Under the pieces are notes generated by a model. That model was not told the origin of the DNA. It saw only the letters and a program-made list of their open reading frames with translations, and searched no databases. The position numbers were made by a program, and so were the translations under genes. Positions 1,218 to 24,691 of a DNA stretch of 64,000 nt are shown here, piece by piece. This stretch comes from Eggerthellaceae bacterium (GTDB taxonomy: Bacteria; Actinomycetota; Coriobacteriia; Coriobacteriales; Eggerthellaceae), in NCBI GenBank assembly GCA_036552405.1, contig JAXKCR010000001.1:64642-128641 (forward strand). The letters are read 5' to 3'. The first letter of the stretch is position 1, and each line of letters begins with the position of its first letter.

Positions 1218-2240
1218 TTAGCAAATACGGGGAAGCTGCTCACCTACCAGCATATCCATAATGCGCAACGCACCGAAGCCCGTGCGGATCGAGACGCGCG
1301 ACGCTCGATCGTCAGGGGTCTCCACGACTTCGCCGATAATGGCCGCATCTGCTCCATATTCGTTCGCCCGCATGGCCTCTAGGGCCGCATCAGCCTGATC
1401 TGTCGGCACCACGCACACCATCTTGCCCTCGTTGGCGACCTGGTACACGTCATAACCCAGCATTTCGCAGGCGCCGCGCACAGCATCTTTCACGGGAACC
1501 GCATCTTCTTCGATGACGAAATCCACACCCGATTGCTCTGCAAGTTCATTGAGCGTTGAAGCCAGACCACCGCGCGTTGGATCACGGAAGCAACGCGTGT
1601 CGGGCGCTGCCGCCAATACTCCGGCGATCAGATGATTGAGCGGGGCCGCATCGGATCGGATGTCAGCAGTGAACGACAGTTCTTCGCGGCATGCCATGAC
1701 CGTAATGCCATGGTCTCCCATAGTGCCGGAAACCAGGATCTTATCTCCGGGCTTGCAGAACGAACCCGACAGCTGTACACCCTGAGGAATGAAGCCAACA
1801 CCGCTCGTATTGATGAACACGCCATCGCCATGGCCGCGGTTGACCACCTTGGTATCGCCCGTCACAATACGCACGCCCGCCTCACGGGCGGCTTCGGCCA
1901 TGCTCTGGCAGATTCGCTTAAGGTCGGCCACCGAAAAGCCTTCTTCCAAGATGAAGCCACAGGAAAGATACCGAGGAACCGCACCACTGGTCGCCACATC
2001 ATTCACGGTACCGCAAACAGCCAATCTGCCGATATCGCCACCGGGGAAAAAGTGCGGGGTGACCACGAAGCTGTCCGTCGAATACGCAATGCGCTGACCC
2101 GCTTCGGGACCATCGAGCGACGCTGCATCGTTACCCTCGAGCAGTTCGTTGCTGCCATACGTTTCATAGAACACTTCATCGATGATGCGCTTCATCATAG
2201 TTCCGCCACTTCCGTGGCCGAGCAAGACCGTTTCGTCCAT
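1218..2240 (-). CDS. hypE: [NiFe]-hydrogenase maturation protein HypE (carbamoyl dehydratase)
   Basis: AIR-synthase-related fold with the diagnostic C-terminal PRIC motif (...GEQLPRIC*). 340 aa. Confidence 0.85.
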   Translation of the reverse strand: MDETVLLGHGSGGTMMKRIIDEVFYETYGSNELLEGNDAASLDGPEAGQRIAYSTDSFVVTPHFFPGGDIGRLAVCGTVNDVATSGAVPRYLSCGFILEEGFSVADLKRICQSMAEAAREAGVRIVTGDTKVVNRGHGDGVFINTSGVGFIPQGVQLSGSFCKPGDKILVSGTMGDHGITVMACREELSFTADIRSDAAPLNHLIAGVLAAAPDTRCFRDPTRGGLASTLNELAEQSGVDFVIEEDAVPVKDAVRGACEMLGYDVYQVANEGKMVCVVPTDQADAALEAMRANEYGADAAIIGEVVETPDDRASRVSIRTGFGALRIMDMLVGEQLPRIC

Positions 2241-2313
2241 CGCATTCTCCTTATAAATGAACCGCGGCCCCGTAACTGACCGAGCCGCGGTTAGAACTTT
2301 GTAGTATTACGCG

Positions 2314-2736
2314 TTAAATGAACGCACCTGTTGTCGTCATGTGAAGGCGCCCGGTTTTTACTCCCTTGGTGCCGATGATCAAGTTGGCAATATCTTGGAC
2401 CAACCCGGTTTCGCCCTTCAAAATGATCACTTCAAGACAGTTCTCTTCATCCACATGCACATGCAGCGATGAAATGACCGTATCCAAATAGTTGTGCTGA
2501 ATATGGTGAAGTTTTTCCTGCAGGTCGTGCGAATGGTGGTTATACGCAATAGTGAGCGTACCCATAACGATACGCCCCGGCATAGAGCATTCGTCTTCCA
2601 CGAGCGCATCGCGAACCAGATCGCGCACCACTTCACTTCGGTTCTTCGCCAAACCACGACGAGCGACCAAATGGTCGAACTTGACCAGCAGGTCCTCAGG
2701 CATCGCCACGGAAAAGCGCATTAGATCATTACCCAT
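2314..2736 (-). CDS. nikR: nickel-responsive regulator NikR
   Basis: N-terminal ribbon-helix-helix (MRFSVAMPEDLLVKFD) plus a C-terminal His-rich nickel-binding domain (HHSHDL...HHIQH). Start may be the internal Met at 2721. Confidence 0.8.
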   Translation of the reverse strand: MGNDLMRFSVAMPEDLLVKFDHLVARRGLAKNRSEVVRDLVRDALVEDECSMPGRIVMGTLTIAYNHHSHDLQEKLHHIQHNYLDTVISSLHVHVDEENCLEVIILKGETGLVQDIANLIIGTKGVKTGRLHMTTTGAFI

Positions 2737-2773
2737 TGCACCCCTTCGTTCCTAATATGTCGTTGTGACATTC

Positions 2774-3028
2774 TTAGACAAGGCTGACAGTGACGCCGCT
2801 TGCGTTCTGCGCGTCATCTTCGAGCGCGTCCTTCGCATCATCAAGTGCAGCACGAACATCGTCAAGCAATGCCTGTACTGCGTGAAGCTTCTCTCCTACG
2901 GTTTCGAAGCCCGCATCAGATGCCTGATGCGCCAGTGTATGGGTCCAGCGACGCTCAAGCTTGATATGGTCATCGATCTGTTCGATCATCTGCTCGAATT
3001 GACCAGTATTCACTCCGTTAGTGCACAT
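2774..3028 (-). CDS. hypothetical acidic helical protein (84 aa)
   Basis: Protein-like D/E-rich composition with no recognisable family. The overlapping + ORF is Cys-rich and less plausible. Confidence 0.3.
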   Translation of the reverse strand: MCTNGVNTGQFEQMIEQIDDHIKLERRWTHTLAHQASDAGFETVGEKLHAVQALLDDVRAALDDAKDALEDDAQNASGVTVSLV

Positions 3029-3159
3029 AATGTCTCCTTAGAACAAGGCGCATCTTTTCGTCGTGCCATTATTACTTTTTAATACCTTTGTAATACCATG
3101 GTTATAGCACAACAGTGTGAATTTTTTTGCAATCGGTATTATTTGCCTGACTAAGAAAG

Positions 3160-3711
3160 GTGCCTCTTGTGCATACATCGCCTTATGACAGGATCACCCA
3201 TCGCCACCTCGATTCGTTCCCGGCAACGATCGAGGGGAACGAAACGGCTTTGTTCTGCGTTGTGAGCACCCACCCCTTGTCGCAGCAGGCGCACGATGCC
3301 CTGGTAGCTTCGGCTGGGCGGCTGGAATATTCGCCTAAGCAAATATGTTTCATCACTTTGACAGCAACCGATGCCGAAGGCGACCGGTCGGCCGCGACAA
3401 TGAGCACGACCAGTACGGACCAGCAGGCCACAACGGCGACCACGACCAGTGCGGACCAATCGATCGTCACACCCCGCCAGCTCCTTGAGGCGATCGAGGC
3501 GATCGACCCGCTTTGCGTTGTCCTGACCGACCGCAAAGCCGTCGAAACAGCATCAGCGGGATACAACGCCCCTCTTTCCCTTGGAACGAAAGAGCTTCTG
3601 CTTGGCCGAGGATGCTGCTGTTTCGAGGACTTTGGATCTCTACTTGAGAGCGAAAAGGGGAAGCGCACCGCCTGGAACTGCCTTCGGACACTACCAACTT
3701 GCTTCGGCTAA
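3160..3711 (+). CDS. hypothetical protein
   Basis: GTG-start ORF with a Thr/Ser/Ala-rich linker and a conserved-looking segment (QLLEAIEAIDPLCVVLTDRKAVETASAGYNAP). No family recognised. Confidence 0.3.
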   Translation: MPLVHTSPYDRITHRHLDSFPATIEGNETALFCVVSTHPLSQQAHDALVASAGRLEYSPKQICFITLTATDAEGDRSAATMSTTSTDQQATTATTTSADQSIVTPRQLLEAIEAIDPLCVVLTDRKAVETASAGYNAPLSLGTKELLLGRGCCCFEDFGSLLESEKGKRTAWNCLRTLPTCFG

Positions 3712-3928: not shown

Positions 3929-5062
3929 ATGCATATGTCCAACAAAAGCCTTGCCGGAGCACACGAAACGCGAACGATCCTGGTCACCGGCGGTGCCGGA
4001 TTCATCGGAAGCCACACCTGCGTCGAACTGCTCGAGCAGAACTATCGCGTGGTGATCCTCGATGACCTTTCCAACTCCAGCGAAATAGCCGTTGAGCGCA
4101 TCCGCGAACTGACCAACGCAACCGAAGAGAACTGCGCGTTCATCAAAGCATCCATCCTTGATCGCACGGCGCTCGAAACGGTGTTCTCCACCTACGATAT
4201 TGATGCCATCATTCATTTCGCTGGCTTCAAAGCAGTGGGCGAATCCACCCAGAAGCCGCTCGAGTACTACTGGAACAACGTAGCCGGATCGCTCGTGCTG
4301 TTCGACGTCGCCCGCAACCATGGCGTGAAGAACGTCATCTTCTCGTCTTCGGCAACGGTATATGGCGAACCCGAGATGATCCCCATCACCGAAGAATGCC
4401 CCATGCACGAAGCCACCAATCCATACGGCGAGACCAAGGCGATGCTCGAGCGCATCCTGACCGACTTCTATCGCGCCGACGACGAATGGAACGTGGTGCT
4501 GCTTCGCTATTTCAACCCCATTGGCGCTCACATTAGCGGCCGCATCGGCGAAGACCCGAAGGGCATTCCCAACAACTTACTTCCCTACGTTGCCCAAGTC
4601 GCAACGGGCAAGTTGGAATGCATCCAGGTGTTCGGCGACGACTACCCCACCCCCGACGGCACCGGCGTGCGCGACTACATTCATGTGGTCGACCTTGCGC
4701 GCGGGCACGTGAAGGCGCTCGATTACATGGGTGGCAAAGTAGGCACGGGTCGCGCTATTGGCCTCGGTTCACTTGAAGGCGCCCCCGCCGAAGACGGCAC
4801 GCGCACAGGCGTTGCGATCTTCAACCTGGGAACCGGCACAGGATCGAGCGTTCTGGATGTTGTCCATGCGTTCGAAAAGGCTTGCGGCAAGACCCTTCCC
4901 TACAAGATCTGCCCCCGTCGCCCGGGCGACATTGCCACCAATTACGCCGCGTGCGACAAAGCGCGCGAGGAACTTGGCTGGGTAGCCGAATACGATCTGG
5001 CACGCATGTGCGAAGACGCATGGCGTTGGCAGAGCTCTAACCCCAACGGTTATCGCGGATAG
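3929..5062 (+). CDS. galE: UDP-glucose 4-epimerase GalE (with a ~40-aa Gly/Thr-rich insertion)
   Basis: Rossmann GGAGFIGSH, catalytic YxxxK, and GalE-type C-terminus. Start at ATG 3929 after GAAAGG. The longer ORF from 3581 has no RBS and no homology. Confidence 0.85.
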
Positions 5063-10677: not shown

Positions 10678-11505
10678 ATGGACACCAACAGGGCCATCGC
10701 TGGCTTCTACTTTCACAGACTGCTCTGCCGCGTCTTCAACGACGAGGACTGCCGCTTCATCCTAAAGGGCGGCCAGGGCATGCTCGCAAAAACCATCGAT
10801 GCGCGCTATACAAGGGATATAGACCTCCTCGCAAAGGGCTCCGACCTGCAGGCTGCGCTCGCCGAGCTCGAGGAACTCGCGTCCATCGACCTCGGCGATC
10901 ACGTGCGTTTCGAGTTCGAGAAAGCCAGCCCTATCAAACTAGAAGACGAGTACAGGGGCGGTTGCACCGTCACATTCTCGGCGTGGATGGGAGCGAAGAT
11001 GGTGCAGGCCGTTTCCATTGACCTCGTCGTGGATCTCGTCGAAGGCGTGTCCGCAGAGCGGGTCATCCCCGTGGATCGCGTTGAAGTGGAAGGGATAAGA
11101 ACGGTCAGCTACATGGTCTACGGCGTGGAGGATGCGCTGGCCGACAAGCTGTTCGGTATCGCGGAAAAGCATGACGGGCGCCACTCCTCGAGGGTGAAGG
11201 ACCTGGTCGATACCGTCATCTACGCTTCATCCTGCACGATTGACGGAGATGCGCTCGCAGCGAAACTGAGGCGTGAGTCAGCGCTTCGCGGGGTTGTCCT
11301 GCCCGTCTCCTTTTCAGTTCCGATCGAGTGGCGCGAGAGCTACCGCCCCATGTTCGGAAAGCTCTACAGGCAGACTGGGATCGATTCCGAGTTCAGGGAG
11401 TTGGACTCCGCGGAAGGATTGGCGAAACGACTCTTCGATCCCATCTTGGGCTCACCCGTTGTTGTCAGAAAATGGAGCCCGAGCAAACTGGAATGGGAGC
11501 GCTGA
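10678..11505 (+). CDS. abiEii: AbiEii/AbiGii-family nucleotidyltransferase toxin (DUF1814)
   Basis: LKGGQGMLAKTIDARYTRDIDLL matches the GG-x-A/S...R-x-S/T-x-DID NTase motif. 275 aa. Confidence 0.75.
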   Translation: MDTNRAIAGFYFHRLLCRVFNDEDCRFILKGGQGMLAKTIDARYTRDIDLLAKGSDLQAALAELEELASIDLGDHVRFEFEKASPIKLEDEYRGGCTVTFSAWMGAKMVQAVSIDLVVDLVEGVSAERVIPVDRVEVEGIRTVSYMVYGVEDALADKLFGIAEKHDGRHSSRVKDLVDTVIYASSCTIDGDALAAKLRRESALRGVVLPVSFSVPIEWRESYRPMFGKLYRQTGIDSEFRELDSAEGLAKRLFDPILGSPVVVRKWSPSKLEWER

Positions 11506-11824: not shown

Positions 11825-13048
11825 ATGAAGCTATTTCGCAGAGAACAATATCTGAAGAAGATCCGCCCGTTTTACGATGATGACTTGATAAAAGTCATTA
11901 CGGGAATACGACGATGCGGAAAATCGTGCCTCATGGCAACCATCGTCGAAGAGCTCAAAGAGCGAGGGGTCCCAGAGAAAGACGTCGTCTACCTCGACCT
12001 CGACAAGCGCGGCAACCGCTCTATCAAGACCCCCGATCAGCTTGAGGCGGCAATCGAGTCGCGACTTGTCGATGACGACTTCAAATACCTCTTCATAGAC
12101 GAGGTCCAGAACGTCCGCGATTACGAGGAAGTCGTGAACGCGTTCAACACCGACGGCGGCTTCTCCATTTTCATCACAGGTTCAAACTCCTACCTTCTCT
12201 CCGGCGAGCTTATGACCAAGCTCACGGGACGTTATATCGAGTTCGAAATGTTCACCTTATCGTTTAGCGAATTCCTAGCCATGAAGGAATTCCTTGGCGT
12301 CGAGGCGAAGGACGATAGGATTGAGTTCGAAGAATACCTTCGCTACGGCGGCTTCCCCCGTTCCCTTAAATACGACGACGTCGAGGCGAAGGCTCACTAC
12401 ATCGAGGATGTCGTGAGGCAAATCATCAAGAAGGACATCAGATCTCGGAATAAGATACGAAACATCGACGCCTTCGAGCGCGTCACGAGCTATGTCATAA
12501 ACAATTACGGCGCACCGACAAGCCTCACCAACCTGGTTGATCACTTTAGAAACGTCGAGAACATCGCCATCGAAAGAAGAACCGTTTCTGCATACATCCA
12601 GATGTTGATCGACGCGAAAATTCTCTACAAATGCCAGCGTTTCGACCTGAAATCGAGGAAGTCTCTTCGAGGTGAGGAGAAGTACTACCTGGCCGATCCC
12701 GGCATCTACTTCGCGAGGAATGTCGATGTGCGTTTGAACTACGGACCATCTTTAGAAAACGCTCTCTACATCTACCTCAAGTCCCGTGGATACAAGCTCT
12801 CAGTCGGGCGAATCGGCAAGCTGGAATGCGACTTCATCGCCAGGAGCTATGACCATTATGCTTATATCCAGGTGTCTATGACGATCGTTGATCGTGATGT
12901 AGAAGAGCGCGAGTACAGACCGTTCAGCCATATCAGAGACGGATACCCGCGTTACCTTTTCACATTGGATCCGCTCTTGCAAAGGCGAGAAGGCGTGAGG
13001 CATCTTAATTTGATCGACTTCATGAAAAACGATGAAGATCTACAGTAG
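11825..13048 (+). CDS. AAA+ ATPase with C-terminal DUF4143 (COG1373-type ATP-binding protein)
   Basis: Walker A GIRRCGKS and Walker B LFIDEVQ, with a DUF4143-like C-terminal region. Lower-GC codon usage than flanks. Confidence 0.75.
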   Translation: MKLFRREQYLKKIRPFYDDDLIKVITGIRRCGKSCLMATIVEELKERGVPEKDVVYLDLDKRGNRSIKTPDQLEAAIESRLVDDDFKYLFIDEVQNVRDYEEVVNAFNTDGGFSIFITGSNSYLLSGELMTKLTGRYIEFEMFTLSFSEFLAMKEFLGVEAKDDRIEFEEYLRYGGFPRSLKYDDVEAKAHYIEDVVRQIIKKDIRSRNKIRNIDAFERVTSYVINNYGAPTSLTNLVDHFRNVENIAIERRTVSAYIQMLIDAKILYKCQRFDLKSRKSLRGEEKYYLADPGIYFARNVDVRLNYGPSLENALYIYLKSRGYKLSVGRIGKLECDFIARSYDHYAYIQVSMTIVDRDVEEREYRPFSHIRDGYPRYLFTLDPLLQRREGVRHLNLIDFMKNDEDLQ

Positions 13049-13642
13049 CGGGATGGGCTGACGCTCCGTCCAATTGTGAAAACCTATAGATTGTCACGAC
13101 AAAACGCTCCGTGGCAGAGAAATGACAACATCGATTTTCGTGAATCTTGTTTAACCCAGCGTAAAATTCCGCAAAATGGCGAACCGAGATTCAAACTGGA
13201 GAAAACAAGCACCGATCCTACCATCGAGTGGGAGTAGAACCAGCACCGCTTAGCGGAAATAGAGAAACCTGGGAGCTGCATTCCCAAATTCGATCGGAAC
13301 ATAGCTCGCATGGGCGCGCCTTGGCTTTTGGAGCTTGGGGGGCCGGACGCAAAATGAAAGCATCGCCTCATCGCTCTGTTCGACGAATACCCCTCCCTCG
13401 AAAAAATGACAAAAGCCGCATGGGTGTTAGCCATAAGTAACTTTCGCTTATAATCAACGGAGAAAGATCTCAGTGGTCCGAGACAGACACCGCAATAGCT
13501 GAGTTCGGCAGAGCGGCAGGATTCACCGAACCTAGCGTATTCACAGAGACGCTCCAGAAAGATGAGGGCTGCTTGCCTACGCGGTTCTGAATGCATCGGT
13601 AGTCGAGCGGTCATGAATATCATTTGCAGGGGGGGAGATCAC

Positions 13643-14464
13643 ATGTCGGAATTCAGCGCTATCGAAAACACTTTGTTCATCCCGCTACTGGGCAGGATCT
13701 ACGCCAGTGAGCATTTCCCGAATATTTTATATGACAAAAAAGCCCTATCGCTGAAAGGCGCCCTACCAAAAGATGCGTTGAATAACGGTTCCCAGAACCA
13801 GTACACCCTATTGGCTTCCGCCTCCCGCTCCGCCAATATGGACCGATACATCCAGCGTTTCCTTCTCCACAAGCCAGGCGGGGTAATCGCGGAACTGGGG
13901 TGCGGGCTAGAGACCACCTATTACAGAAACGACGATGGATATACCCGCTGGTACGCCATCGAATTACCGGAGGTAATGGCGTATCGCAATACGCTACTAC
14001 CGAAACCGGAACGACAGGAATGCTTTGTCGGCGACGCCTTTGCAGACGACTGGATCACACGGATTCGCATTGATGTACCAAATGCGCCGATGCTGGTTAC
14101 TGCCGGCGGCCTGTTTCACTATTTCGAAGAGGAAAAAGTACTTGACCTTCTGCGGATGCTGCAAAGCCTCGGAAATGTAGAGGTGGTGTTCGACAGCGTG
14201 AATAAAATCGGAATGGATATGATGCGGAAGAAATACATGAAGCAAATGGGGCATGCTGATGCAAGAATGTTCTTCTACGTGGATTCCGCAGCAGAGCTTG
14301 CCAGGAAAATCGGCGATGATATCTGCACCATTACAGAGGAACCTTATTATCACCATATCGACAAGGCCGGACTAAAGCTCTCTACGAAACTCAGCATGAG
14401 CGTATCCGACCGATTGCGCATGGTGAAAATGATGCATGTAAAAGAGAAGAAAGGAATTGCCTAG
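13643..14464 (+). CDS. class I SAM-dependent methyltransferase, TcmP/LCMT (O-methyltransferase) family
   Basis: VIAELGCGLETTY SAM motif I and a polyketide-O-MT/Ppm1-like overall pattern. GGGGGAG RBS before ATG 13643. Confidence 0.65.
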   Translation: MSEFSAIENTLFIPLLGRIYASEHFPNILYDKKALSLKGALPKDALNNGSQNQYTLLASASRSANMDRYIQRFLLHKPGGVIAELGCGLETTYYRNDDGYTRWYAIELPEVMAYRNTLLPKPERQECFVGDAFADDWITRIRIDVPNAPMLVTAGGLFHYFEEEKVLDLLRMLQSLGNVEVVFDSVNKIGMDMMRKKYMKQMGHADARMFFYVDSAAELARKIGDDICTITEEPYYHHIDKAGLKLSTKLSMSVSDRLRMVKMMHVKEKKGIA

Positions 14465-14746
14465 GTAAAGGGGTGAACAGGATTCCCCATTGAATGATAC
14501 AGTCGCCTCGTTGAGCAGGACGATAGATACACCCTTGAGCAATAAGGCACAGCAGCACCCTCAAAAGCACTTCGCGACAGCAGGAAACTCCCGATTTTCG
14601 GATATCATGTTACAACCAACATAAAATTTGCAGCGAACGCGATTTTCGGAAAATCCAACCCGCTTTGTTCCGCTGAATAACAGAGGGGCGCGCGGGATTT
14701 GCCGACAAAGCGATTTTAAATCGACCACGAAACGAGGAGCGCGCCA

Positions 14747-16777
14747 ATGAGAACCGCCCCTATTGGTTTTTACGACAAGGCCGCCGCGCAGAACAAGCGC
14801 CTCGCACGCATTATCGCGGTTGCCATGGCATGCATGCTCGCAATGCCGCTTGCACTTACCTGTGCACCCATGAAAGCATACGCCACCGAATCATCTTCGA
14901 ACATTACTGCGGGAGTCGTCGAAAGCAACGCCGCTCTCATTTATATCATGGCTAGATACGCAAATGCCGATTCGATGGAAGTAATTAACGCCACCGCCAA
15001 GCGCCTGGCACCCGGCACGGGAGATACCACGAGTGAAGCAGCCCAGATCGCACGAGCATACGGCCTCACGGAACTCATGAACGCAGTTGCTTACGGCAGC
15101 TCCTTCACAAGCGAAGACCTCGCAGAACAATTCAACAACCTTAATGGTGCGCCCGCCACGGATCCCAGCGTTGCCGTACAGGCGGCCACCGTCAAAGCTC
15201 TTGAGGAAAACCTGGAGTCGCTTATCTTTTCCAGCGAAGGCGTAACGAATGACCTTACGACCGCGCTCCGCATAGCCGCAAGCCCCATCACTAACACCGA
15301 ATCGGACGAAGTGCAGATCGCACGATGCAAACTGATTCCCGAGCTGTTCGACATTATCACCAGCAATGCAGCCGATGATCCAGATAGCGCCAACACCATC
15401 ATCGAGAACTTTAATCAGCTGTTCGGCGACGTTACCAAAACCCCCAGCGCTGCCGTACAGGAAGCTGCTGCTGAATGCTACGGAGCAGTGGTTGCCCAGG
15501 GTATCGGTGACGGATGGACCAAAGAACAGATAGAAGAATTCCTTGCCCGCACTACGCCCACCGTTTCTGATTGGGATAGCGATGCCGCCCAGGCGGGCCG
15601 TGCGCGTGGCATTGGGGATTTCCTTGTTGAGTCTAACGAAACCGCCCTTGAGGAAGCGGTCAACGTTTTCATCGCATTGACTGGCGAAAAAACCGATGCA
15701 CCCAGCCTTACCGTGCAAGCAGCCGCAGCCGAAGGGTCCGCCCTCTACATCCAGACACTCGCCCGCACACAGGACATCACCGCCGTGCAAAACGCCTATA
15801 CCCAGCTCATGCCATCTATCACCAACAAAACCGCAGAAGACGTACAGCTCGCCCGCGCGCAAGCATTAGCTACTTACTACGAAGCCATTGCCCGCACACC
15901 CGAAGATCGTGACCAACTCCACGCCATCTTCCTTGATATCTACGGCGCTGTCAGCAATTCACCCAGCATAGCGGTACAGGCAGCCGCCGCTGAATCGTAC
16001 GCCGCCTACTTCACGGCCCTCGCTCGACAACCAGGGTTCGCAGAAATGCTGACCGACGACGCGAAAGAACTCTCGCCCGCCATTACCAACAAAGACAACG
16101 CCACCGTTGCCGCAGCATGCGCCAGCGGAGCACGCACCCTAATTGAAGGTGCTGCTCGCCAACCGGAGGCTACCGACCTCCTTAAACAAGGTGGCGAGGA
16201 AATCGGCCTCCTCCCTCTTGCCAAGAGCGACACTTCGACCTTCCAAGGAGCGCGCGCTGCAGCACTGGGTAACCTGTATACCGCGCTATCCCGTCAGCCC
16301 GAAATGGCAGACACCTTAACGGACCTTTTCGTTGAGATCTACGGCGAAGTGCCCACCTATACGGTGACCTTCGATGCGCAGGACGGCAGCGAGCCCACTG
16401 TTGTATCTGCAAAACTCAATTCTTCCGTTGCCGAACCCGCGGATCCCGCGCGCACGGGCTACACGTTTAATGGCTGGGCGCTCAACGGTAGCGCTTTCGA
16501 CTTCGCAACACTTATTGATAGCGACCTGACCCTGACCGCTCAGTGGACAGCGAACACTCCAACTGAGCCAGAGAACCCGACCGACCCCAGTGACCCCAAT
16601 AACGGAAACGAAACTACGCCTGATCAGGAATCCAATGCAGACACATCCGCAAGCGAGCTTGCTAAAACGGGAGACTCGTCGGTCGCTTTTGCGGGTTCAG
16701 CCGCTGCTATTGCAGCTCTCGCGCTGATCGCCTGCCTCGCTGCCATTCGTCATCTTCGCGGCATTGGGAGGGAGTAG
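14747..16777 (+). CDS. cell-wall-anchored surface protein: signal peptide, ~6 tandem ~70-aa Ala/Gln-rich helical repeats, Flg_new (Listeria-Bacteroides) repeat, Pro/Thr linker, LAKTG sorting signal
   Basis: Signal peptide ...LTCAPMKAYA. Repeats carry the recurring motif ITNKxxxxVQxAR...IYGxVxxxPSxAVQxAAAExY. It has YTVTFDAQDGS...GYTFNGW, then LAKTGD followed by a hydrophobic stretch and a basic tail. Confidence 0.8.
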   Translation: MRTAPIGFYDKAAAQNKRLARIIAVAMACMLAMPLALTCAPMKAYATESSSNITAGVVESNAALIYIMARYANADSMEVINATAKRLAPGTGDTTSEAAQIARAYGLTELMNAVAYGSSFTSEDLAEQFNNLNGAPATDPSVAVQAATVKALEENLESLIFSSEGVTNDLTTALRIAASPITNTESDEVQIARCKLIPELFDIITSNAADDPDSANTIIENFNQLFGDVTKTPSAAVQEAAAECYGAVVAQGIGDGWTKEQIEEFLARTTPTVSDWDSDAAQAGRARGIGDFLVESNETALEEAVNVFIALTGEKTDAPSLTVQAAAAEGSALYIQTLARTQDITAVQNAYTQLMPSITNKTAEDVQLARAQALATYYEAIARTPEDRDQLHAIFLDIYGAVSNSPSIAVQAAAAESYAAYFTALARQPGFAEMLTDDAKELSPAITNKDNATVAAACASGARTLIEGAARQPEATDLLKQGGEEIGLLPLAKSDTSTFQGARAAALGNLYTALSRQPEMADTLTDLFVEIYGEVPTYTVTFDAQDGSEPTVVSAKLNSSVAEPADPARTGYTFNGWALNGSAFDFATLIDSDLTLTAQWTANTPTEPENPTDPSDPNNGNETTPDQESNADTSASELAKTGDSSVAFAGSAAAIAALALIACLAAIRHLRGIGRE

Positions 16778-16780
16778 CCG

Positions 16781-16912
16781 AGGCGCAAATGTGTCTACTT
16801 TTTAGACACCAATCGCAAAATTCACTATTTAGTGTCTATTTTTTGGCCTATTTTAGACACTTCGTGGCGAAAGACACTCGAAGTGTCTAGTTTGGCGACA
16901 CTATTCGTGCGC
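16781..16912. repeat. ~110-130-bp repeat copy 1 (three GTGTCTA/TAGACAC-type palindromic units), downstream flank of fic
   Basis: GTGTCTA-N6-TAGACAC, AGTGTCTA-N16-TAGACACT and GACACT-CGA-AGTGTC. ~95% identical over ~105 bp to 18205-18313. Confidence 0.8.
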
Positions 16913-18175
16913 AAACCCATCACTTGTGCCATACATCTCAGCGAATGCACCTAGGTCGGCAGCGTAGAGCATCTCCCGCCCTCTTCGATTTTTGCTGAGC
17001 GGCATAACGTCCTCTATTTCCCGAATCACCTTATATATCGTCGCTTTCGATACACCAAGCATGCCGCCAGCCTCCTTGGCTGACAAACCACAATCGGAGA
17101 AAAGAGCTGCCTGTATAAAAACATAGGCCAGATCGCATGCTTTTTCTGATACTTCGCCTGCTGATTTTATGGCGCGAGAAAGCAACTTTTCGTTTTCTAT
17201 AAGCGCTGCTTTTTTCTCTTCCAGCACTCGGCAAACGCGCTCTAGCGATTCCGCGATAACGTCGCAGAACATTATGACAAATGGGGTTATGTCACCCTTG
17301 CTCAACGGATGCTCCCCTAACGCAAAAGCACGATTATATTCTGCAAGGCGCTTTTTTATGGTGTACGACAAGCTATACCCCGCAAGCGACTCGCAGCAAT
17401 TAGAAAGATATTGGCTGCTTATAAACCGGTTCGTCCGTCCATTGCCATCGTAGAAAGGATGGATGTACCCGAACAGGAAATGAAACACAGCAATGCGCAC
17501 AAAATCATCTACTGCTGTTTCGTTGTTGAGAAAAACTAAGGACTTTTCCATTGCCTCAACAATGGCGCTCTCGGGCATAAGCCCGCAATGAATCTCCCGA
17601 TCTCCTTCGTCGTATACACTCACGCTGTCTTTCCTGAACAGCTTTCCATCGGGCGCGTTATCGGGCTTCTCCTCAAGCACTTCCTTTAAAACCAGCTCAT
17701 CGTAGAGATGCCTCGCATCAGTTGGATTATCAACGGCATCCCAATTACCAGAATTCAACATCACATACTTTTTAACCAAGCCGTGAAATCTCATTTTACG
17801 ATCTTTTTTCTCCAGGTTCTCAAGGATAACTTCGATTTCACGCCTTGTACTCCGAACGCCCTCTATCTCATTCGTCAGGACGATTTCGTCAATCAAGCAA
17901 CTCGTTGTAAACTGCTCGATCGCTTTACCTGGCAATGCGTGAACAAGCCTGAGGAGTTCTTTATCGGCCTTCGTCGCCCTTACCATGCTCTGGTATATAT
18001 CCGATGTCATAACGAAAAAACCAGGAGAACCAGCTATCGCTACTCCGAGGTGCACCGCATCGGGACCGTCAAAACGCGACTGATATAGAGCGGCGTCATC
18101 CACATCTTGCCGATGGAAAGCTGTTTTTTGATCGAGATATGCCACCGTGCCTCCTCCGACGAGAAATGGTTTCAT
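16901..18175 (-). CDS. fic: Fic-family protein (AMPylase-type) with C-terminal HTH
   Basis: Canonical Fic motif HPFYDGNGRTNR and a C-terminal HTH (GMLGVSKATIYKVIREI). 424 aa. Confidence 0.85.
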   Translation of the reverse strand: MKPFLVGGGTVAYLDQKTAFHRQDVDDAALYQSRFDGPDAVHLGVAIAGSPGFFVMTSDIYQSMVRATKADKELLRLVHALPGKAIEQFTTSCLIDEIVLTNEIEGVRSTRREIEVILENLEKKDRKMRFHGLVKKYVMLNSGNWDAVDNPTDARHLYDELVLKEVLEEKPDNAPDGKLFRKDSVSVYDEGDREIHCGLMPESAIVEAMEKSLVFLNNETAVDDFVRIAVFHFLFGYIHPFYDGNGRTNRFISSQYLSNCCESLAGYSLSYTIKKRLAEYNRAFALGEHPLSKGDITPFVIMFCDVIAESLERVCRVLEEKKAALIENEKLLSRAIKSAGEVSEKACDLAYVFIQAALFSDCGLSAKEAGGMLGVSKATIYKVIREIEDVMPLSKNRRGREMLYAADLGAFAEMYGTSDGFAHE

Positions 18176-18182
18176 TGCTACT

Positions 18183-18313
18183 TAGTGTCTATTTTTAGCA
18201 TATTTTTAGACACCAATCGTAAAATTCACTATTTAGTGTCTATTTTTGGCCTGATTTTAGACACTTCGTGGCGAAAGACACTCGAAGTGTCTAGTTTGGC
18301 GACACATTTTTAC
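18183..18313. repeat. repeat copy 2 (direct orientation relative to copy 1), in the fic promoter region; carries an extra partial unit at its 5' end
   Basis: Same palindromic units as copy 1. It begins 8 bp upstream of the fic start codon. Confidence 0.8.
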
Positions 18314-18596
18314 TCATAAAGACTTTACGCCATTGCGACATCGTCAAGAGACAACTTGTTTAGACTGGCCCCAAGAAAGCCATTAGTCTTGTTGCCTCAC
18401 GGAGCATTCACGACAATCAGCCGAATCTCTCTAACCGAAGCTATAGAAAACCGACCAGCACACAAAACGTCGTCTTGAGCCGACACAACTAACGCTATTC
18501 CGTCCGCTTCGATTGATAGACCGCCTCATCAACCTCTCGTATCATTTTCTTCATCGTATGAAACATATGAATCGCTTCGCATAGAGAGGTGGCACC

Positions 18597-23917: not shown

Positions 23918-24691
23918 CTACGCAGTGCCTTGCGCCTTTAGTTCCTCGAGCTGCTTCTGCAGGTTCTCGTAGTGACGCATTTCTTCCGGCGTCCATTCGC
24001 CAAACAGCACATCCCTAAGCGCTTCGCCAGCCGTACGAGCATCATCTTTTACAGGATACAGACATTGCTTGGCGCGAGAAAACAAGCGTACGGCATCGAA
24101 TACGCCCGTAGATTCAAGATGCTCCAAGTTACCCACGATTTCCTGAATGATCTTCTGATGATGGGCGGGATCGGTGGCGCGCGGGATGGTTCCAGCAATG
24201 CGCATGCTCTCGTATCTGATTAAGCAGCTGACCAGCGATATTTCCGGCTTTACCGCCATAAGCGCAAGCGAAACGTTGTACCCGCGCTCCTTTAGCAAGG
24301 TCGCCGTCTTCATGGGGACATCGTAGGTACGTAAGGTGCCTTCGATGATAAGGTTGTACCCCCTACGCGAAAGTTCATCTATAAGCGTTTCTGTCATCTT
24401 TCCAGCCCATGGGGCCGTGTAGGCAACAGCTTCTGGACCATACTGCTGATCGAGCTCTCTGTAGCGCGGATGGAACGACCGATACTCATCCCCATTGATA
24501 ACGATGACGTTGCCGCCAAACTTCTTGCGAAAAATCGAATGGAGCGTTGTTTTTCCCGCGCCACTCTGCCCACCCAACAAAACAGCGCAAGGAGCGGTAG
24601 ATGAGGTTATACCACCAGAGCCCAGTCGATCAGCAATGATCTGTGCCAGAACGGCATTGAACTCTTCAGAAGAATAGTCCTCCAGGGTCAT
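23918..24691 (-). CDS. zeta-toxin-family kinase (PezT-like, UNAG kinase toxin)
   Basis: Walker A GGQSGAGKTT in a zeta_toxin/AAA_33 fold. 257 aa. Start overlaps the antitoxin stop. Confidence 0.75.
   Translation of the reverse strand: MTLEDYSSEEFNAVLAQIIADRLGSGGITSSTAPCAVLLGGQSGAGKTTLHSIFRKKFGGNVIVINGDEYRSFHPRYRELDQQYGPEAVAYTAPWAGKMTETLIDELSRRGYNLIIEGTLRTYDVPMKTATLLKERGYNVSLALMAVKPEISLVSCLIRYESMRIAGTIPRATDPAHHQKIIQEIVGNLEHLESTGVFDAVRLFSRAKQCLYPVKDDARTAGEALRDVLFGEWTPEEMRHYENLQKQLEELKAQGTA

Follow-up and report, generated by a model that had tools for sequence, protein, structure and literature searches.

Why should a single bacterial gene carry the same palindrome-rich sequence at both of its ends? 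The question is raised by a fic gene on the minus strand of a 64,000-nt stretch of an Eggerthellaceae genome (contig JAXKCR010000001.1, positions 64,642–128,641; hereafter the window), which is bracketed by two direct repeats. A preliminary description of this DNA had proposed three models: attachment (att)-like ends of an excisable cassette, operator arrays for a dimeric helix-turn-helix (HTH) protein, or a miniature inverted-repeat transposable element (MITE). Our analysis favours the second. The repeats are probably operator arrays through which Fic represses its own gene from both ends, likely by bridging or looping, and this reading draws support from the palindromes themselves, their co-variation with the Fic recognition helix, the precedent of the CccR protein and selection on the downstream half-sites. 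Autoregulation by a Fic protein with an HTH domain is of an already known kind (CccR); new are the multi-dyad arrays bracketing the gene, together with their repeated independent appearance and upkeep.

The repeats lie at 16799–16901 and 18203–18305 (103/104 nt, both in the same orientation). They are 95% identical without gaps and 97% identical once a 1-nt indel is allowed, with a longest unbroken identity of 52 nt, so that the earlier claim of ~110-bp direct repeats of ~95% identity bracketing fic was borne out with slightly corrected coordinates. Homology reaches 16791 and 18185 when a 10-nt indel in a palindrome spacer is permitted. The downstream copy starts 14 nt past the stop (16777) of a convergent LPXTG/Flg_new surface-protein gene (14747–16777) and, as had been noticed, extends to the end of fic, its last base being the first base of the stop codon (CTA on the + strand, 16901–16903). 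The window contains only these two copies. The heptamer GTGTCTA occurs 13 times on its two strands (3.6 expected), with 10 of the 13 inside the repeats, and GTGTCTA-N4–17-TAGACAC is found four times where none is expected. The AT-richness described for the region was also confirmed, with a GC content of 0.41–0.50 at the fic locus versus 0.55–0.60 in the flanks.

Each array consists of three dyads with a 51-bp period (Table 1), which would place them on the same face of the helix. GTGTCTA begins at 18185, 18236 and 18287 in the upstream array and at 16791, 16832 and 16883 in the downstream array, where the first of the two intervals is 10 nt shorter on account of the indel. Read on the fic strand, the order is S0 (GTGTCGC-N5-TAGACAC), a 22-nt linker, S2 (GTGTCTA-N15-TAGACAC), another 22-nt linker and S3, the spacer of which is N15 in the upstream copy and N5 in the downstream copy (S3′). 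Dyads had been recognised in the preliminary description, and their anatomy required revision. The short dyad has a spacer of N5, not N6, and exists downstream only, its upstream counterpart having an N15 spacer and beginning outside the range first given for that copy; the long dyads stand, with N15 between their 7-mers rather than the spacer first noted. The unit given as GACACT-CGA-AGTGTC has a strain-variable inner half, and the conserved distal dyad is instead GTGTCTA-N5-GCGACAC. Repeat edges fall exactly on dyads, both in the window and in a second clade of related loci (L017/L189; related loci are given L numbers).

The 10 nt missing from S3′ include AGCATA on the + strand, that is, TATGCT on the fic strand. 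This is the sole TANNNT-type candidate for a −10 element within the promoter-proximal dyad, and we infer that role from its sequence only. An antisense promoter on the + strand of the repeat (TAAAAT/CAAAAT/TATAAT) was considered and dropped, since its critical first T varies between strains.

Table 1. Features of the fic locus and its flanking arrays, in window coordinates.
Feature	Position	Strand	Remarks
R_dn, downstream operator array (predicted)	16791..16901		Direct repeat of the upstream array; between the LPXTG stop (16777) and the fic stop
S3′, short-spaced dyad GTGTCTA-CTTTT-TAGACAC	16791..16809		Downstream counterpart of S3, 10 spacer nt fewer
S2, dyad GTGTCTA-N15-TAGACAC, downstream	16832..16860		Both halves invariant across all downstream copies
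S0, short-spaced dyad GTGTCTA-GTTTG-GCGACAC, downstream	16883..16901		Final base is the first of the fic stop codon
fic coding sequence	16901..18145	-	414 residues from GTG at 18145; frame open up to ATG at 18175
Shine-Dalgarno sequence GGAGGAGG	18150..18157	-	4 nt ahead of the GTG start; read from sequence
R_up, upstream operator array (predicted)	18185..18305		Presumed to hold the fic promoter; proximal 50 nt invariant in the lineage
S3, promoter-proximal dyad GTGTCTA-N15-TAGACAC	18185..18213		Invariant in all upstream copies; spacer with TATGCT (fic strand)
S2, dyad GTGTCTA-N15-TAGACAC, upstream	18236..18264		Same dyad kept upstream of fic in L002 and L004
S0, short-spaced dyad GTGTCTA-GTTTG-GCGACAC, upstream	18287..18305		Distal edge of the repeat

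The gene between the arrays is a minus-strand open reading frame (ORF, 16901–18175) with a Pfam Fic match (E = 8e-13) and a weak, below-threshold C-terminal match to HTH_23. Its probable start is the GTG codon, based on gene calls of 414 residues, the upstream GGAGGAGG and homologue lengths of ~404 residues. In an alignment of 24 sequences the Fic active-site motif HxFx(D/E)GNGRxxR reads HPFYDGNGRTNR without exception, and the inhibitory motif of class II, (S/T)xxxE(G/N), takes the form TNEIEG (residues 91–96, with T91, N92, I94, E95 and G96 invariant). An AlphaFold2 model (mean predicted local distance difference test, pLDDT, 91) ends in a C-terminal winged helix (pLDDT about 90) made up of helices 334–349, 356–363 and 367–378 and strands 383–388 and 391–396. 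Foldseek and profile searches returned full-length fold matches to SoFic (3EQX), CbFic2 (8CIL) and CccR (7XUX), and the profile alignment to 8cil and 3eqx extends through the winged-helix domain. Before residue 172 Pfam gave no match at all, and thus none to DUF4172/Fic_N, the N-terminal domain carried by CbFic2 and SoFic. Foldseek aligned 372–388 columns to 3eqx/8cil (TM-score 0.56–0.63), and the modelled N-terminal region is structurally comparable to theirs, yet forms a separate sequence family. As modelled, the protein has the architecture of SoFic, CccR and CbFic2, that of a class II Fic AMP-transferase ending in a winged helix.

This Fic belongs to a large family, with more than 3,000 relatives in a protein search and 197 in viral contigs (IMG/VR). 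We compared 80 metagenomic and 80 viral Fic loci (31–50% identity) and scored 91 distinct upstream regions. Nearly all family members have one to three palindromes 15–160 nt upstream of the start, of constant architecture: a 6–9-nt half-site, an A tract, a 4–9-nt GC-rich centre, a T tract and the inverted half-site. Palindromes with at least nine matched arm positions occur in 85% of the 91 regions versus 19% of dinucleotide shuffles, those with at least 12 in 55% versus 1.1%, and palindrome density is 10.3 per kb upstream versus 1.5 per kb in coding sequence. In two relatives of the window gene, L002 (71% identity) and L004 (60%), GTGTCTA-N15/16-TAGACAC is kept upstream of fic while all neighbouring genes differ.

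The half-site varies by lineage, in step with the predicted recognition helix of the Fic protein. Helices of the type S[KR]AT[IV]YK go with the half-site GTGTCTA, SYNTVR with TTCTCAAAA, SENT[IV]Y with CCTCAAAA, TRVTIKSRL with GTGATAAAA and [SN]RGT[IV]QKR with TTTA[CT]AAAA. Such a pattern is what direct readout by Fic's own domain would predict, and is not what would be predicted by an RNA hairpin or an unrelated regulator; Fic's own C-terminal winged helix is the most likely dimeric binder of the dyads. A TetR gene and further HTH genes lie nearby, and the dyads might instead be operators for another regulator encoded elsewhere, with fic under its control. We regard this as quite improbable: the dyad type shifts with the Fic recognition helix, moves with fic into neighbourhoods that share no other gene, and has no regulon, being absent elsewhere in the window and present at one locus in the genome scan described below.

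The palindromes could also act as RNA or single-stranded DNA hairpins, for example in the fic mRNA, forming a structured 5′ untranslated region and a 3′ stabiliser or terminator. Folding z-scores on the fic strand are −5.9 and −5.4, A/T tracts lengthen the stems to 12–20 bp in many family members, and S3′ in the downstream copy would form a compact hairpin of 7 bp next to the end of the convergent gene. However, the opposite strand folds nearly as strongly, hence the z-scores do not separate the models. Mismatches in 126 palindromes gave 54 G·U versus 44 A·C, so there is no sense-strand wobble bias, and the palindromes therefore fit double-stranded DNA sites rather than sense-strand RNA hairpins. 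An Rfam scan of 14–21 kb (E ≤ 1) gave no match. The window dyads, with 7–8-bp AT-rich arms, 15-nt loops and non-complementary A tracts, would make poor stems, and the co-variation with the recognition helix would be left unexplained. Together this leaves the hairpin explanation a slim chance.

Whether the repeat is instead a generic interspersed element, a MITE or a repetitive extragenic palindrome (REP) flanking fic by chance, can be judged from its copy number. One genome per species from 185,579 species, a set that covers the source genome only partly, was scanned for the exact dyad pattern GTGTCTAAAA-N11–13-TAGACACTAA. A single stretch was found, at the syntenic locus of a related metagenome-assembled genome of the Eggerthellaceae. 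A dispersed MITE or REP is thereby effectively refuted, and the scan did not show the unit at many loci unassociated with fic, the outcome that the preliminary description had named as counting against its proposals. With about 110 bp, many palindromes and a high AT content the sequence would suit such an element, yet there are two copies in 64 kb, neither target-site duplications nor terminal inverted repeats were found around them, and their flanks share nothing outside the repeat. The genuine interspersed repeats that flank fic in L004 and L069 look different.

The bracket is not peculiar to the window. When the flanks on both sides of fic were compared for all loci, the upstream operator region proved to be repeated directly 3′ of the fic stop in four independent contexts, namely the window lineage, L050, L017/L187 and L189, whose repeat sequences are unrelated and whose copies are in direct orientation throughout. 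In L050 (Fic 36% identity) the repeat is 116 nt, 96.5% identical between copies, and each copy has two CACTTCCCAAAA-N8-TTTTGGGAAGTG dyads; the five samples of this lineage are identical, so only four between-copy differences are informative, all of them outside the palindrome arms. In L017 (Fic 44% identity) the repeat is about 100 nt. L187, 92% identical to L017 and at the same genomic site, is bracketed, as are L189–191, which are 67% identical to L017 and occupy another genomic site, flanked by a RelB/PIN pair and by rpsI, whereas L188, 84% identical to L017, has no bracket. The L017/L189 clade follows the repeat grammar of the window, opening with a short-spaced dyad (GTTAA-N4-TTAAC) and continuing with a long-spaced one (TGAGTTAA-N15-TTAACTCA).

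As a control, 243 ORFs of at least 200 residues, from all the sequence analysed, were searched for flanking repeats, and these were found only at fic genes and at one other winged-helix gene. The latter lies in L012, a locus of the window lineage, and encodes a 432-residue protein with SLFN_AlbA_2, HATPase_c_4 and a C-terminal winged helix (1819–3117). Its 132-nt direct repeats (1593–1724 and 3135–3266) are 83% identical, the downstream copy beginning 18 nt past the stop, and the whole unit (L012:1593–3266) replaces window positions 13330–14704, the place of the window's LCM methyltransferase gene. The flanking repeats of L004 and L069 were excluded as further brackets, being multi-copy intergenic repeats unrelated to operators (L004:9680–9830, 11228–11316 and 13337–13380; L069:2340–2840 and 4283–4592). 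In these Coriobacteriia-like contigs they surround fic and include a GTCATCCTGAGCGAAGG...-type element and terminator-like hairpins, and can imitate flanking direct repeats. The downstream neighbour is convergent in four of four bracket contexts versus 46% of the family background (p ~0.045), an association that is suggestive only.

Viral relatives (L107–L186, IMG/VR) often lie a few kb from the end of 30–45-kb, prophage-sized contigs, and the family in this respect resembles accessory ('moron') genes of prophages. No operator bracket was detected among 36 distinct viral upstream regions, the sole flanking repeat in viral contigs being a duplicated stop codon and terminator in L109.

Whether the downstream copy has a function was judged from the conservation of its half-sites. 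In the L017 clade, the copies have diverged to 50–78% identity with half-sites still present; within L017 and within L187 the two copies are only about 72–75% identical. Across the three downstream copies of this clade, half-site columns vary at 5 of 35 positions versus 63 of 84 for other columns (Fisher p = 8e-10), between L017 and L187 at 1 of 35 versus 38 of 90 (p = 3e-6), and among the five distinct downstream sequences of the window lineage at 3 of 49 versus 17 of 65 elsewhere (p = 0.004), all p-values being optimistic because the alignments anchor on conserved blocks. With this caveat and that on column choice given below, the downstream arrays look like predicted binding sites that purifying selection has maintained, in several unrelated gut bacteria, rather than like neutral scars.

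Several results weigh against the operator reading, in addition to the optimism of these p-values. The half-site columns were set from dyad symmetry in one reference, partly after the alignments had been inspected. Upstream copies of the window lineage show no contrast, with 8 of 49 half-site columns variable versus 12 of 82 in spacers, although their 50 promoter-proximal nt do not vary. Phylogeny confounds the link between half-site and recognition helix, and the repeat region has strongly negative RNA folding z-scores (−4 to −6) whichever strand is folded, which leaves some probability to a role as RNA or single-stranded DNA. A consensus scan for sigma-70 promoters and terminators returned nothing beyond chance in either repeat, hence the position of the fic promoter is an inferred one. 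Finally, about 90% of the sampled family lineages (including L002, L004 and L188) manage without a downstream array, which is therefore not essential.

The clearest competitor is that the downstream copy has no binding function, and is a duplication scar or a substrate for homologous recombination, by which RecA could delete the gene as a circle or amplify it, with copy-number variation as the result. The direct orientation of copies in all four contexts is expected from tandem duplication, and 52 nt of unbroken identity suffices for RecA. The repeats are found on both sides of fic in all eight sampled loci of the window lineage (L001, L012, L093–L097 and the window; fic 97–100% identical, flanks 90–96%), and exchange has left traces among them. 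An ENA contig (L094) matches the window at 99.9%. Both window copies carry shared private variants (CAA; A in CCACG), indicating gene conversion, a 51-nt unit is missing from L093, in which S2 and S3 are fused, and 173 nt are missing from L097. The window copies thus recombine occasionally. All eight genomes, and all five of the L050 lineage, have exactly one fic and both repeats, and no empty or amplified allele was found among these 13. The L017 and L187 copies, about 75% identical within one genome, are poor substrates, too diverged for efficient exchange, yet are retained. A bracket in about four of a few dozen fic lineages, versus one of ~235 other ORFs, would be hard to obtain from neutral scars, as would downstream half-sites that are selectively kept while spacers decay. 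We therefore consider a scar or recombination substrate to be rather unlikely as an explanation of the bracket.

The 173 nt absent from L097 correspond to window 18306–18478, deleted between the GTGTCG motifs GTGTCGGC and GTGTCGCC. They fall in a rearrangement hotspot just beyond the upstream array (window 18306–18480, L012:7043–7724, L093:1–3800 and L097:265–478), in which L012 and L001 have an extra gene for a 182-residue P-loop (AAA_33-like) protein and L093 has instead an HTH_3/MazE-like gene, a hydrolase and an ICMT-like methyltransferase.

The repeats could also be att sites at the ends of a small cassette (integron-like, or a mobilisable mini-element) that a recombinase moves in trans. 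This would account for the exact coincidence of repeat edges with dyads, and the module does occupy different genomic sites in different genomes, in a family that is common in prophage contigs. In L188 (2290–3760) and L109 (1225–2690) the fic module, with no operator bracket, is flanked by a 30–40-nt duplication of its insertion target, the last codons of a convergent UbiB/ABC1 gene in L188 and the stop codon and terminator of the preceding gene in L109, which suggests that the module arrives as an insertion. However, no integrase, transposase or recombinase domain was found among window ORFs between 7.5 and 28 kb or in related loci, there was one cassette-like unit at the fic locus and no cassette array, and the genome scan returned no solitary repeat site. 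Exact look-ups via the neighbouring LPXTG and HXXEE proteins gave no empty site, the contigs either agreeing with the window or ending at the repeats or short of them. Moreover, the repeat and the Fic recognition helix change together, lineage by lineage, which is evidence for Fic as the binding protein rather than a recombinase common to all. An att cassette is thus very improbable; from the excision model of the preliminary description, occasional homologous exchange survives, while the site-specific part is unsupported, with no recombinase within about 9 kb and no empty site or circle seen.

Single genes flanked by palindromic repeats are known from two other systems. In the REPtron, a gene for a REP-associated tyrosine transposase (RAYT) is flanked by REP palindromes in inverted orientation that are dispersed genome-wide, and attC integron cassettes need an integrase and sit in cassette arrays. 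None of these traits (inverted flanks, dispersal, integrase, cassette array) is present at the window fic locus.

For operator arrays bound by Fic, the nearest precedent is CccR of Yersinia pseudotuberculosis, the C-terminal HTH dimer of which binds a palindrome at its own −35/−10 region and represses its own gene (PMC9755527). The window protein resembles CccR in its whole-protein fold and as a class II FIC protein that has an inhibitory helix near the N-terminus and an HTH at the C-terminus. Its gene likewise has operator-like palindromes in its presumed promoter region, with three dyads in the upstream repeat 40–160 nt 5′ of the GTG start. CccR differs in having one wide dyad (10-N26-10) at −35/−10 and no downstream copy, as opposed to three dyads per array (N15, N5) and a second array; it is also a type VI secretion system effector of a Gram-negative bacterium, with ~17% similarity to the window Fic, mainly in the Fic core. 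CbFic2 and SoFic, of the same three-part architecture, are the best sequence and structure matches, from Fic through the winged helix. The winged helix of Coxiella burnetii CbFic2 binds DNA, and binding switches the enzyme from AMPylation to deAMPylation (PMC10628234). CbFic2 has been studied with non-specific DNA, DNA binding by SoFic has not been demonstrated, and no cognate operators have been described for either.

We propose that Fic dimers would occupy the three upstream dyads, block the promoter and keep a potentially toxic AMP-transferase at a low level; by analogy with CccR, the upstream array would overlap the fic promoter and mediate negative autoregulation. The downstream array would be a duplicate of this regulatory region placed after the stop codon, in the window minus 10 nt that include the candidate −10. 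Its direct orientation would be accounted for if the module had been duplicated in tandem and the second coding region then lost. The downstream array may recruit further Fic dimers and cooperate with the upstream array, in the simplest case through protein bridging or a ~1.4-kb loop enclosing the whole gene, which would tighten or stabilise repression.

Operators of the same specificity that lie hundreds to thousands of bp apart and cooperate by looping are familiar from lambda CI (OL/OR), lac (O1/O2/O3) and gal (OE/OI). As expected of looping operators, the window has a second array of the same dyads (R_dn) at a distance of 1.4 kb, and its three sites per array resemble lambda. By comparison with these systems, however, the second array lies past the 3′ end, the predicted loop would enclose the repressor's entire gene and the putative repressor is fused to an enzyme. 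A recurrent, selectively kept operator array 3′ of a gene would be an unusual regulatory layout in bacteria.

A more tentative extension, drawn from the switch of CbFic2 upon DNA binding and to which we give a modest chance, is that the arrays at both ends serve as a docking platform, where repression is combined with the holding of Fic on DNA in a non-toxic state, so that operator DNA would act as the 'antitoxin' of a one-gene module. If so, the bracketed SLFN_AlbA_2/HATPase_c_4 gene of L012, the only non-fic gene with a bracket, would extend the layout to self-contained toxic or defence genes in general. Should a loop or docking platform form, it would provide compact silencing or buffering of a potentially toxic enzyme with no separate antitoxin, and a new case of regulation at long range, of which bacteria offer few examples. 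Genes for Fic enzymes with DNA-binding tails abound in gut bacteria and in prophages, while only CccR has a characterised operator. The predicted operator code, linking recognition helix to half-site for dozens of lineages, opens the DNA specificity of the family to direct testing.

Some minor features of the locus were also recorded. Short-read (Logan) contigs end in or just before the repeats (L098 and L099 at about window 16880, L105 at about 18385), hence the bracket will often go undetected or be broken in short-read assemblies. Within the fic coding sequence there is a perfect 16-nt inverted repeat at 17637–17652 and 18110–18125 (AACAGCTTTCCATCGG and CCGATGGAAAGCTGTT), with arms 457 nt apart. 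Toxin-type genes are abundant around fic, with an AbiEii nucleotidyltransferase toxin at window 10678–11505, a Zeta toxin at 23918–24691 and an AAA_14/DUF4143 ATPase at 11825–13048.

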